The notes under the pieces: model-generated | What the model was told of the DNA's origin: nothing | Seen by the model: the letters and a program-made list of their open reading frames with translations, nothing else | Databases searched by the model: none | Program-made: the position numbers and the translations under genes | Shown: positions 140 to 8,879 of the stretch, piece by piece | How the letters are laid out: every line of letters begins with the position of its first letter | How positions within the stretch are numbered: the stretch's first letter is position 1 | Virus record (IMG/VR): IMGVR_UViG_2654587726_000023 | From: a virus | Lineage: Duplodnaviria; Heunggongvirae; Uroviricota; Caudoviricetes | Strand: one strand, 5' to 3' | DNA length: 11,878 nt

Positions 140-262
140 GCGGGTTATGCGGGTTATCCTGTGTATAAGTGCATTAACTGTATGAATAAAAAGGAAATCA
201 ATAACCCGCACGTAACCCGCAAAACGGCAGTTATAACCCGCAAAAGTGCGATTATAACCCGC
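140..262. repeat. Iteron array 1: 2 abutting copies of GCGGGTTAT (140-157), a ~43 bp AT-rich spacer, then 4 copies of (A/G)TAACCCGC at 201, 212, 233, 254; putative replication origin
   Basis: Direct reading of the sequence; 9-mer in inverted orientation flanking an AT-rich core, with 21-bp spacing between later copies. Confidence 0.6.
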
Positions 263-5539: not shown

Positions 5540-5708
5540 ACAGGAGCAAACCAGGCTGATACGTGGACTGATAAGGCAGCGTGACTTATGGAAGACACAG
5601 GAGACAGGGCACAAAGCCAACAGGACAGGGCGCACAGAACGCACCACAGCGAAGCAATTAACCGACCGTGACCGCGAGGTCATGGAATGTTTTCGCAATC
5701 GCTGGTGA
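5529..5708 (+). CDS. Hypothetical small basic protein (59 aa)
   Basis: ATG 5529 overlapping end of HNH gene in another frame; Arg-rich MMTEQEQTRLIRGLIRQRDLWKTQETGHK…; no clear RBS; could be non-coding. Confidence 0.3.
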   Translation: MMTEQEQTRLIRGLIRQRDLWKTQETGHKANRTGRTERTTAKQLTDRDREVMECFRNRW

Positions 5709-5827
5709 GGCCGTCAGAGGGGGTGGGGGTGGTTTTCAGGACGAAACCGTCCCTGCCGGACACCGACCGCCTCCTCAAATTTTTGTGCACGGGAATTTTT
5801 TTGAAAATAATTGGGCGAAAAAAGAAC

Positions 5828-6184
5828 ATGGCAAGACCACCAAAAGCCCCCGCTTACCTGGATGAAATCGCGGTCAGGCAGTGGAAGGAAAAATCGCGCC
5901 AGCTTTCCGGACGGGAAGACCTTACCCCCGCCGACTGGAGCAATCTGGAGCTGTATTGCGTTAACTACTCCATATACCGCAAAGCCGTCGAAGACCTTGC
6001 CACGCGCGGGTTCAGCATTGTTAACAGTCAGGGCAGCGAGAGCAGAAACCCTGCCCTGAGCGCAAAGGCTGACGCTGAAAGAATAATGATCAAAATGGCT
6101 TCTTTGCTGGGTTTTGACCCGGTAAGTCGCCGCAGAAATCCACCGGAAACAGAGGAAGAGGACGAGCTTGACCGCCTGGCATGA
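5828..6184 (+). CDS. Terminase small subunit (P27-like)
   Basis: 118 aa from ATG 5828; …PADWSNLELYCVNYSIYRKAVEDLATRGFSIVNSQGSESRNPALSAKADAERIMIKMASLLGFDP… resembles P27-family small terminase; directly precedes and overlaps terL. Confidence 0.65.
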   Translation: MARPPKAPAYLDEIAVRQWKEKSRQLSGREDLTPADWSNLELYCVNYSIYRKAVEDLATRGFSIVNSQGSESRNPALSAKADAERIMIKMASLLGFDPVSRRRNPPETEEEDELDRLA

Positions 6185-7829
6185 GTACGCAGAAGGCGTA
6201 AAAAACGGCAAAATTACGGCCTGTAAACGACTGAAACAGGCCGTTAAACGGTATTTTTCTGACCTTGAAAACCCCCTTTACACGTTCGATCCGGAGGTCG
6301 TGGAGCGGTTTATTGCCTTTTCCAGGGTGTGTCCGCACGTAAAAGGCGCAATGCGCGGTAGCCCCATTGAGCTGGAGCCGTGGCAGCAGTTCGCCTTTGC
6401 GTGCATCCTGGGCTTTAAGGTTAAGGCCACCGGACGGCGCAAATACACCAGCGCATTCATTGAAGTGCCGCGAAAAAATGCCAAATCCACGGTCGCCGCT
6501 ATCCTGGCTAACTGGTTTCTGGTTATGGAAAACGGGCAGCAGGATATTTACACCGCCGCCGTGAGTCGTGATCAGGCGCGGATCGTGTTTGATGATGCGC
6601 GTCAGATGTGCCTTTTATCCCGACCGTTACGAAAGCGGGTAAATATTCAGGCACACAAGGTGATACACCCGAAAACCAACAGCCTGTTAAAGCCACTGGC
6701 AGCAAAAGCGGCAACCATTGAAGGTACAAACCCGAGTCTTGCCATTGTGGATGAATATCACCTGCACCCTGACAACGGGGTTTATTCCGCGCTTGAACTG
6801 GGAATGGGGGCGCGTCCGGAGGGGCTGTTATTTGCCATCACCACATCGGGGAGCAACGTTGTTTCAGCCTGTAAACAACACTATGACTATTGCTGCCAGA
6901 TACTGGATGGTGAAGAGGTGAACGAATCCATGTTCGTGCTGATTTACGAGCTGGATGATGAAAGCGAGGTTGACGATCCGGCGATGTGGATAAAGGCGAA
7001 TCCCAATATCGATGTTTCCGTCGATCGTGAAAAACTGGCCTCAACCATCCAGAAAGCGCGGGGTATTCCGTCGCAGTGGGTGGAAATGCTCACCAAGCGA
7101 TTCAATATCTGGTGTCAGGGGGCTACACCGTGGATGGGTAGCGGTGCATGGGCGGAGTGCGCCGGAACGTTCGCGGAGGCGGATTTATACGGTCAGGAGT
7201 GCTACGCGGGGCTGGACTTATCATCAACCAGCGATATTTCCAGCGTGTGCTATGCCTTTCCGGTCGGTAAAAAGATTATGCTGGTTTCCCGTCACTATCT
7301 GCCGGAATTTCAGCTACAGAACCCCGCCAATAAAAACCGCGCCATCTATCGCCAGTGGGTAAAGGCGGGCTGGATACGCACAACACCGGGTGACTGCATT
7401 GATTATGACCGTATCCGTGATGACATCATGGCGGATGCAGAGAATTTCAATATCAGGCTGGTGGGCTTCGATACATGGAACGCCACGCACCTGAGGACGC
7501 AGCTACAGGGGGCAGGATTTGAGGTGGAGCCGTTCCCGCAAACATACCTTCGTTTCAGTCCGGCGGCGAAATCGTTCGAAGTTTTTGTTAACCGGAAGGT
7601 GATTGTGCATCGTGGCGATCCGGTGCTGGCCTGGTCAATGAGTAATGTTGTGATGCAGAGTGACGCAAACGCCAATATCAAGCCGAACAAGAAAAAATCA
7701 TCCAACAAGATAGACCCGAGCGTTGCGGCTCTGATGGCGTTTGGCACATTCCAGGCAGAACATGAGGAATTTGCATTTGATATAAGCGACAGCCACAAAG
7801 AGCGGCTTGCGGCGTTTGATGGGGTATGA
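6168..7829 (+). CDS. Terminase large subunit
   Basis: 553 aa; apparent TTG start at 6168 with GAGGA RBS, overlapping terS end; motifs …LEPWQQFAFACILGF…, ATPase region …EVPRKNAKSTVAAIL…, …AIVDEYH…, nuclease-domain region …GLDLSSTSD…. Confidence 0.9.
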   Translation: MTAWHEYAEGVKNGKITACKRLKQAVKRYFSDLENPLYTFDPEVVERFIAFSRVCPHVKGAMRGSPIELEPWQQFAFACILGFKVKATGRRKYTSAFIEVPRKNAKSTVAAILANWFLVMENGQQDIYTAAVSRDQARIVFDDARQMCLLSRPLRKRVNIQAHKVIHPKTNSLLKPLAAKAATIEGTNPSLAIVDEYHLHPDNGVYSALELGMGARPEGLLFAITTSGSNVVSACKQHYDYCCQILDGEEVNESMFVLIYELDDESEVDDPAMWIKANPNIDVSVDREKLASTIQKARGIPSQWVEMLTKRFNIWCQGATPWMGSGAWAECAGTFAEADLYGQECYAGLDLSSTSDISSVCYAFPVGKKIMLVSRHYLPEFQLQNPANKNRAIYRQWVKAGWIRTTPGDCIDYDRIRDDIMADAENFNIRLVGFDTWNATHLRTQLQGAGFEVEPFPQTYLRFSPAAKSFEVFVNRKVIVHRGDPVLAWSMSNVVMQSDANANIKPNKKKSSNKIDPSVAALMAFGTFQAEHEEFAFDISDSHKERLAAFDGV

Positions 7830-8119
7830 CGAGAATGAGCGAAACCGAACTACTAAAAATAATCCGTCGCGTTACCGGAATCAGCCAGGAAGCAGGCAAA
7901 CAGGAGGCCACGCAGCCGGACAGCGTGATAGCCGAAAATTACGCGCGTGTGGTGGCTGAGGTGATGCGCCGTGACGGTATCGAGCTTAACGGCGTGGATA
8001 TACGCAATATACGCACCAGAGTTCTGGAGTTGTTGTCATATCGTCGCCGCGTGGAGATGTACCAGGAGAAAGAAAAAATTACTTACCACTGGAAGAAGCC
8101 GGAGCGGTTACGACGTTAA
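7826..8119 (+). CDS. Hypothetical protein (97 aa) downstream of terL
   Basis: ATG 7826 overlaps terL stop (ATGA); alternative ATG at 7835; no recognisable family. Confidence 0.45.
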   Translation: MTRMSETELLKIIRRVTGISQEAGKQEATQPDSVIAENYARVVAEVMRRDGIELNGVDIRNIRTRVLELLSYRRRVEMYQEKEKITYHWKKPERLRR

Positions 8120-8123
8120 CTTG

Positions 8124-8170
8124 TGGTGACATACCGTGACGGAGAGTGACAACCAGTGACACACAGTGAC
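8124..8170. repeat. Five helically phased copies of GTGAC at exact 10-bp intervals (core at 8126, 8136, 8146, 8156, 8166)
   Basis: Direct reading: tgGTGACataccGTGACggagaGTGACaaccaGTGACacacaGTGAC. Confidence 0.7.
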
Positions 8171-8192
8171 AAAAAGACGGTATTTAAATAGA

Positions 8193-8222
8193 GTGGGTGT
8201 TTAATACCCCCCGTTTTTTTTC
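8193..8222 (+). terminator. Possible weak intrinsic terminator (short GC stem then T8 run)
   Basis: GGG…CCC short stem followed by GTTTTTTTT at 8212-8221; stem is weak. Confidence 0.3.
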
Positions 8223-8373
8223 GTGTGGTGCATGGTCAAAATGACCACGGAGAAGATACGCACCGAAGCAGAACAATTACCGTAGGTTAAAGCGACAGTA
8301 TTCACACCAGCAACCTGATTATCAATTTTCAGCCGTTCGGTGGCATCACTGGCCCCATTTTCCTGATGGGGTT

Positions 8374-8526
8374 GCGGGTTATTTGGGGGGGATTTGCGGG
8401 TTATTTTGAATGTCTCGCGGGTTACGCTTTGGCTAATATTCAAACGCATCATTTTTTAACTCATTGATATTAAAGAATAAAAAATACTTAGCAAGCGAAG
8501 ATAACCCGCTAACCCGCATAACCCGC
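8374..8526. repeat. Iteron array 2: 3 copies of GCGGGTTA(T/C) at 8374, 8396, 8417 (about 21-bp spacing), ~75 bp AT-rich spacer, then 3 abutting copies of (A)TAACCCGC at 8501-8526; same 9-mer as array 1
   Basis: Direct reading; same inverted-iteron-flanking-AT-core architecture as 140-262. Confidence 0.6.
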
Positions 8527-8879
8527 ACTGTTTTGTATATATATATACGAAAAATTGCATTCAGGAGGTGGGATCGAAATCCCTACAACCCATTGCTTAT
8601 GGGACTGCCCGCCCCGTCAAATTTTTACACCCGCGAAAAATACTTCAAGCTGGTGGGCATGATGCCGATATGGGGATCCCCATGTCGACATTAACGCCCC
8701 TCATGAATTGGCGTGCTTCCCCCTGGAAAGATGACCCGCCTGTATATTTCTTGTGTCTATTTGTTCCACGTTGTTTCATACAGTGCACCGAACGGTGTAG
8801 TTACTGGTGTAGTCATTTTGCGATTTTTAAAGTTATCTAAGATATTATTTGTCGCTTAAATTCAATTAGTTATGAGTAT

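Follow-up and report, generated by a model that had tools for sequence, protein, structure and literature searches.

Array 1 of a cf-PICI-like satellite as the probable Rep-proximal unit of its replication origin

An 11,878-nucleotide stretch of DNA from the IMG/VR record IMGVR_UViG_2654587726_000023 (Caudoviricetes), referred to here as the window, begins with the 3' end of an open reading frame cut by its left edge, followed at positions 140-262 by a cluster of six copies of a 9-mer, GCGGGTTAT or its reverse complement ATAACCCGC. The question raised by this locus is whether the cluster, array 1, is the site at which the element replicates, and whether the truncated gene encodes the protein that acts there, as a preliminary description had proposed. 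We consider it probable, at roughly 0.8, that array 1 is the Rep-proximal unit, unit A, of the origin of a cf-PICI-like satellite, and that a DUF927 Rep protein acts there as initiator and helicase.

The satellite, its Rep protein and array 1

E. coli chromosomes match the window over its whole length, at up to 99.3% identity. An annotated E. coli locus with that identity (L001), which also supplied the full-length rep gene, identifies the window as the right two-thirds of an element of about 15 kb that splits E. coli yifB. The left part of the element in L001 encodes, in order, int, alpA, YlcI/YnfO, an Icd-like gene, small ORFs, DUF4222 and a 707-residue DUF927 protein, after which array 1 follows, 6 kb from attL. 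The middle part holds ssb, a ProQ/FinO-domain gene and an 82-residue ORF. The late region encodes the element's own HK97-type major capsid protein, protease, portal, connector, HNH protein, TerS and TerL, then two small ORFs, with no tail genes. At the right end, a second repeat cluster, array 2, is separated from the remainder of yifB by about 350 bp of non-coding DNA. Pfam models for AlpA, SSB and ProQ match the corresponding proteins. The same gene content has been described for capsid-forming PICI (bioRxiv 10.1101/2022.09.08.507074), and by this content the element is a capsid-forming PICI-like (cf-PICI) satellite.

The first gene after array 1 is ssb (327-752, + strand; Pfam SSB, E=1.1e-15), directly followed at 789-1319 by the ProQ/FinO-domain gene (Pfam, E=6e-24), whose position is taken by a PerC-family gene in the O157:H7 and 042 elements. 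Within the roughly 8.9 kb of element that the window holds, Chi sequences (GCTGGTGG) occur on the + strand at 356, 1173, 3336, 7457 and 8649 and on the - strand at 382, and a Chi-containing CTGGCTGGTGG lies directly after unit A in five related loci (L003, L010, L014, L015 and L020). Such sites may shield linear intermediates of replication or packaging from RecBCD. Over its last 165 bp or so (about 8663-8827), the element shares 94.5% identity with the right end of the O157:H7 cf-PICI (L024, 20221-20385), despite different chromosomal sites and integrases that are only distantly similar at the DNA level.

The truncated reading frame comprises the last 37 codons and the stop codon of rep (3-116, + strand). 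Its product is identical to the C-terminus of the 707-residue L001 protein and belongs to the variable C-terminal domain whose sequence, as described below, tracks that of the repeats. Full-length Rep matches Pfam DUF927 (E=1.4e-45) and PHROG 1139, named "DNA primase" (E=3e-174), carries a Walker A motif (GKT), and finds two proteins of known structure, 8tch, the SaPIbov1 Rep initiator, which has helicase activity (E=1.8e-14), and 5dgk, the SCCmec Cch helicase (E=3.4e-4). The NCBIfam Cch1 helicase model is matched at E=7e-11 with 41 bits, below the family cut-off of 700, so Rep is not a Cch orthologue. Pfam finds neither a primase domain nor a Rep_3 domain in Rep. Primase activity is suggested by database names only, and the protein may not be a primase; its helicase part is the one confidently assigned. 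These family and structure-level matches identify Rep as a replication initiator-helicase of the SaPI-Rep/Cch kind, in agreement with the role given earlier to the ORF at the left edge. Foldseek served solely to identify 8tch and 5dgk, both already matched by the sequence search, and a literature search for 8TCH found no paper. An AlphaFold model of full-length Rep has a mean pLDDT of 60, falling below 50 over residues 586-707, so no fold is claimed for the C-terminal domain, and a PDB profile search with that domain returned chance matches only.

Array 1 starts 23 bp past the rep stop codon (114-116). Two abutting copies of GCGGGTTAT at 140-148 and 149-157, a tandem with a 9-bp period that reads as ATAACCCGC on the - strand, are followed by a 43-bp spacer (158-200) and then by four copies on the + strand between 201 and 262: ATAACCCGC at 201-209, 233-241 and 254-262, and GTAACCCGC, which has a mismatch, at 212-220. 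The tight pair and the phased copies thus have opposite orientations. The spacer, a candidate unwinding site, is 69.8% A+T against 49% for the window as a whole, and its 31-mer at 173-203 ranks fifth among the least stable duplexes of the 11.9-kb window (z=3.15). The preliminary description had claimed two inverted 9-mers, an AT-rich core of 43 bp and four 9-mers at 21-bp spacing. The pair, the core and the number of downstream copies stand as described; the uniform 21-bp spacing does not, the intervals being 11, 21 and 21 bp with one copy mismatched. The window contains 19 matches to the 9-mer when up to one mismatch is allowed, compared with 2.5 +/- 1.7, and at most 8, in 200 shuffled sequences, which marks the repeats as non-random. 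Twelve of the 19 copies fall in just two clusters, 140-262 and 8374-8526.

Next to rep, no repeat cluster or A+T-rich candidate other than array 1 was found. A promoter and terminator scan of positions 1-400 found neither, including no sigma-70-like promoter, and an Rfam scan of the whole window detected two chromosomal tRNAs only, with nothing at either array. A DnaA-box-like sequence, TTATACACA, lies inside the spacer at 160-168 on the - strand; as a single relaxed match with no conservation in other genera, it was dropped from the proposed mechanism. Between the rep stop codon and the first repeat, positions 117-139 and the equivalent segments in L004-L022 contain a semi-conserved CAYGTGNGAG followed by an A/T run.

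A second, inverted unit, contiguous or split

Array 2, or unit B (8374-8526), uses the same 9-mer and repeats the layout of array 1 read backwards. Three phased copies on the - strand come first (8374-8425, starting at 8374, 8396 and 8417, with spacings of 22 and 21 bp, the last copy being GTAACCCGC), then a spacer of 75 bp (8426-8500; 72% A+T), and then on the + strand a tight triple, ATAACCCGC, CTAACCCGC, ATAACCCGC, with a period of 8-9 bp (8501-8526). The 31-mer at 8456-8486 in this spacer is the least stable duplex of the window (z=3.78). After the triple follows a (TA)n-type flank, GTTTTGTATATATATATACGAAAAA (8530-8556), the third least stable segment of the window (z=3.35). Both the triple and the flank are found in relatives whatever the class of iteron they carry. 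Comparison with the corresponding unit of E. coli 042, in which the two units are also far apart, shows 0 substitutions in 48 iteron positions and 22 in the 145 other positions (Fisher p=0.0012), indicating that the repeats of the remote unit are under constraint. No gene follows unit B in this element, and near array 2 the promoter and terminator scan returned only a terminator on the + strand (8195-8222) and weak matches.

Several smaller features surround unit B. The GTTTTGTnTATATATAC-GAAAA flank beside its triple is common to different genera and iteron classes, even where no gene follows, being present at 8530-8556 in the window, at 14578-14615 in L003, and after unit B in L004, L005, L009, L017 and L019; candidate roles for it are DNA unwinding, priming and promoter activity. 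An ORF for 83 residues on the - strand (8201-8452) begins in the array 2 spacer and crosses its three - strand iterons. Both L001 and L002 annotate it as hypothetical, nothing in Pfam, PHROG or NCBIfam matches it, and the call may be spurious. Five GTGACA repeats with a 10-bp period (8126-8173), distinct from the iterons, lie after the ORF at 7826-8119 and before the terminator.

The preliminary description had also pointed to other genomes as a place to look for such arrays beside homologous rep genes. A scan with one genome per species yielded 20 loci with Rep proteins 56-87% identical to that of the window, from at least 11 genera of Enterobacterales (sources comprise Escherichia albertii, Winslowiella, Cedecea, Serratia, Rahnella, Pantoea, Yersinia, Citrobacter, Pectobacterium, Tenebrionibacter and Apirhabdus). 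The sequence after rep was readable in 19 of the 20, and all 19 have the array 1 layout. The rep stop codon is followed, at about +24, by two or three repeats set end to end, in the interval +23 to +45; an A+T-rich spacer some 45-55 bp long comes next, and then three or four inverted repeats spaced 11, 21 and 21 bp. The sequence of the repeat varies from locus to locus and includes GCGGGTTAT (the window), GTGGGTTA, CTTGTCCCA/TTATCCCA, CGTGGTTCA, GTTGGTTCA and CGGTTCA.

Unit B directly follows unit A in 11 of the 20 relatives, about +180 to +310 past the rep stop codon. Two further elements, each with the repeat TAACCCGC, likewise have contiguous units: L024, the cf-PICI of O157:H7, for which helper induction has been done with phage HK106, and L028, a classical E. 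coli PICI. Elsewhere the units are split, by 0.17 kb in L006, 2.2 kb in L003 and L020, 4.8 kb in L015, 6.2 kb in L014, and 8.2 kb in the window element and in E. coli 042 (L027). Wherever unit B was found, contiguous or split, it has a fixed orientation and carries the iteron of its own unit A. The intervening DNA differs, consisting of ssb-proQ, a MazF-like gene, phage-like genes or an entire capsid module. Two loci, L010 and L011, have no unit B within the sequence examined. Derivation of the split form from the contiguous form by circular permutation or inversion was ruled out.

Two of these loci show unusual surroundings. The right end of the split cf-PICI of E. coli 042 (L027, 9501-10673) adjoins a prophage terL that lacks its N-terminus, so the satellite looks embedded in a late gene of a helper prophage, as has been described for HE-PICIs (PMC10111431). 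Locus L012, from Yersinia pekkanenii, has three full A+B iteron regions on one contig. One directly follows the rep stop codon and the other two precede it by about 5.7 kb and 1.1 kb, with about 4.6 kb and 1.2 kb between neighbours. This arrangement suggests tandem or nested elements, or partial duplications.

The iterons and the C-terminal domain of Rep

Which protein reads the repeats can be approached by finding what changes when their sequence changes. The Rep protein of the E. albertii locus L003 is 94.6% identical to that of the window over residues 228-600 and 34% identical over residues 601-707, and its iterons are CTTGTCCCA. The DNA of L001 and L003 can be aligned from DUF4222 to about Rep codon 600, through ssb-proQ, and to the right of array 2; the segments that cannot be aligned are the Rep C-terminal domain with array 1 and the repeats of array 2. 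The converse is seen in L004 and L019, from Winslowiella and Tenebrionibacter, whose Rep proteins are 73-76% identical to that of the window in the core and 67-68% identical in the C-terminal domain, and whose iteron, GTGGGTTA(T), is one base off GCGGGTTAT. As far as these sequences tell, the repeat co-varies with the last 105 or so residues of Rep in both directions, which supports reading the array as an origin.

No other protein considered behaves this way. AlpA (WP_001409403.1) and TerS (WP_001353110.1) are each identical in L001 and in an element in which array 1 has been replaced (L002, below); these two and Int do not track the iterons and were rejected as their binders. DUF4222 is less alike in elements that share an iteron (34-42% identity) than in elements whose iterons differ (53-55%), and was rejected because it does not track iteron class. 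The same repeat occurs at four integration sites (yifB, beside roxA/phoQ, beside cspD/clpS, and beside a prophage terL), and iteron sequence also does not follow the Rep core or the integrase.

A natural exchange of the replication module is found in at least five E. coli genomes (H10-H14), which have the same element as the window from position 294 on and a different left part. In one of them, L002 (NZ_CP115984), identity from position 294 onward is 99.7%. The rep gene there encodes a 604-residue P4-family primase that matches TIGR01613 and shares 49.5% of its residues with P4 alpha. This rep and the eight TGTTCACC repeats behind it, which occur in both orientations, take the place of the DUF927 rep and array 1 (5690-8040), and TGTTCACC is exactly the type-1 8-mer of P4. 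Literature searches for the 9-mer and for TGTTCACC found unrelated primers only. Array 2 is retained with its ATAACCCGC repeats (16080-16232), now an orphan in an element with a non-cognate, P4-alpha-like rep. Unit A, then, moves together with rep, and unit B can stay behind alone; the orphan also indicates that unit B is dispensable for the persistence of such an element.

Known origins, rival explanations and the proposed mechanism

The origins of SaPIs lie right after rep, with opposed iterons flanking an A+T-rich region, and SaPI Rep loads itself, its C-terminal winged helix binding the iterons and setting specificity (PMC9371898). Array 1 resembles those of SaPIbov1, SaPI1 and SaPI5 in its position 3' of rep, in its opposed iterons, with at least two on each side of an A+T-rich region (here two on the - strand and four on the + strand), and in the homology of its Rep to SaPIbov1 Rep (8tch). 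Unlike SaPI iterons, which are 5-6 bp long, those of the window are 8-9 bp and form a tight block and a block phased at 21 bp; further differences are the two inverted units of the DUF927-Rep family, 8 kb apart here, and the Gram-negative host. The origins of E. coli PICIs are organised alike, and a pri-rep-ori fragment of EcCICFT073 replicates a plasmid (Fillol-Salom et al. 2018, PMC6092414). EcCICFT073 shares with our element the order int, alpA, Icd-like, DUF4222, rep, ori, ssb and late genes, as well as two iteron sets around an A+T-rich region. Its Rep, however, is a P4-alpha-like primase of 584 residues and its iterons are TGTCTACC, in contrast to the DUF927 Rep and GCGGGTTAT of the window, so that this validated origin belongs to another rep class. 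The SaPI/PICI-type architecture ascribed to array 1 at the outset thus agrees with published origins.

In the P4 record, the alpha gene is directly followed by crr, and ori is found at a distance of 4.7 kb; each contains the type-1 8-mer. P4 and the window element both have one iteron cluster right after the initiator gene and another cluster, made up of the same repeat, that is remote from it, by 4.7 kb and 8.2 kb respectively. The two systems differ in their proteins, a P4-family primase with its C-terminal domain as opposed to a DUF927/Cch-like Rep without a TIGR01613 match, in their iterons, and in that the clusters are usually contiguous among relatives of the window element. The second cluster of P4 is needed in cis, being annotated as "cis required region", which is a P4 feature; the orphan unit B of L002 and the lack of one in L010 and L011 hint against a strict cis requirement here. 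SCCmec Cch (5dgk) is a helicase of the same DUF927 family on an integrative mobile element.

The iteron plasmids pSC101, R6K, P1 and F use Rep_3-type winged-helix proteins, dimers or monomers, which recruit DnaB and are not themselves helicases, and their iterons are 17-22 bp long. Like array 1, they have direct repeats phased at about two helical turns beside an A+T-rich unwinding element, and they too have additional iteron arrays, which in the plasmids act in control. Unlike them, the window has a Rep without a Rep_3 domain, 9-bp iterons in both orientations, and one DnaA-box-like site, which is not conserved. Because plasmid iteron arrays also serve copy control, binding of Rep would not by itself prove that replication starts at array 1. 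The arrays might bind Rep for copy control or autoregulation only, through titration or handcuffing of arrays 1 and 2, with replication starting elsewhere. Phased 21-bp direct repeats with a remote second array do resemble the control iterons of iteron plasmids, and unit B is absent from L010 and L011 and orphaned in L002. But each array encloses one of the window's easiest-melting segments, as origins do; the layout equals that of mapped SaPI/PICI origins, with no other candidate beside rep; and iterons usually combine control with origin function. We judge this explanation improbable.

Explanations that give the repeats to proteins other than Rep fare less well. Operators for a satellite transcription factor, AlpA or another regulator, over the ssb and packaging operon would account for the place of array 1 upstream of ssb and, where the units are contiguous, for the position of unit B some 30 bp ahead of a small gene, and the TATATATA flank could be a -10 element. 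Yet AlpA is the same in L001 and L002 despite the replaced unit A, the iterons track only the Rep C-terminal domain, positions 1-400 hold no sigma-70-like promoter, and unit B is followed by no gene here, which together make this explanation quite unlikely. Still less can be said for packaging sites, the cos or pac of TerS, or for arm-type sites of the integrase: TerS proteins and integrases do bind short repeats, and array 2 is close to the right end, but the same layout is seen in elements that lack both terminase and capsid genes (L003, L004 and others), L001, L002 and E. coli 042 share one TerS protein while unit A of L002 differs, and the same iterons serve elements at four integration sites with array 1 remote from attL. 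That the repeats are chance or non-functional remnants is scarcely credible. The orphan array 2 of L002-type elements, and only of those, fits a remnant; against this, none of the 200 shuffles reached the observed count, the layout is kept over at least 11 genera, and iteron positions are constrained.

Array 1 is thus best read as the likely replication origin of the preliminary description, a reading that draws on rep homology, on layout and on the co-variation of iterons with the Rep C-terminus seen in the compared sequences. Judging by the co-variation, the last 105 or so residues of Rep are most likely the part that recognises the 9-bp iterons. Rep bound to the tight pair and Rep bound to the phased copies would face one another over the A+T-rich spacer, and by analogy with SaPI Rep the protein would melt this spacer and load itself there as the replicative helicase, with the neighbouring ssb supplying single-strand binding protein. 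We infer, then, that Rep binds the repeats, that the spacer melts and that replication starts there. In most relatives the contiguous A and B units would make up a quasi-palindromic origin of about 300 bp. With about 8.1 kb of cargo (ssb, proQ, capsid, portal and terminase genes) between the units of the window element, the origin would be bipartite on the excised circle, as are ori and crr of P4. Unit B may be a second origin, an enhancer of unit A by Rep-mediated looping, or a limiter of replication.

A bolder version of the two-unit scheme is that the inverted units are one-sided Rep loaders that form one origin together, that their junction is a recurrent slot for cargo, that replication requires Rep-mediated pairing over 8 kb, and that an orphan unit B could be bound by the Rep of a co-resident satellite. 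We hold this to be a speculative proposal, more doubtful than not. If it were true, the whole capsid and packaging module would lie inside the element's own origin, P4 ori/crr-like pairing would extend to the SaPI-Rep helicase family, and the orphan unit B of P4-alpha-type recombinants could lead to cross-talk or incompatibility between satellites.

Taken by itself, array 1 is most likely an ordinary PICI/SaPI-type origin and confirms the cut ORF as the initiator gene. The kind of system is known, and the layout of two units split by cargo is a variant that we did not find described in the PICI and cf-PICI texts consulted, although Fig. 2a of PMC6092414 may show part of it; the cf-PICI texts consulted likewise contain no map of the origin. 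The finding offers an origin definition, at the level of sequence, for the DUF927-Rep class, which is present in 243 of the 5,426 complete E. coli genomes and includes the model cf-PICI of E. coli O157:H7; more than 1,884 homologues of this Rep were detected. At least five classes of iteron, each matched to a Rep C-terminal domain, amount to a natural specificity code, which includes a near-isogenic swap of the domain and makes recognition of DNA by the initiator directly testable. Inverted origin units that cargo can separate, while their iterons stay constrained, bear on the capture of late genes by satellites and on their exchange of replication modules.
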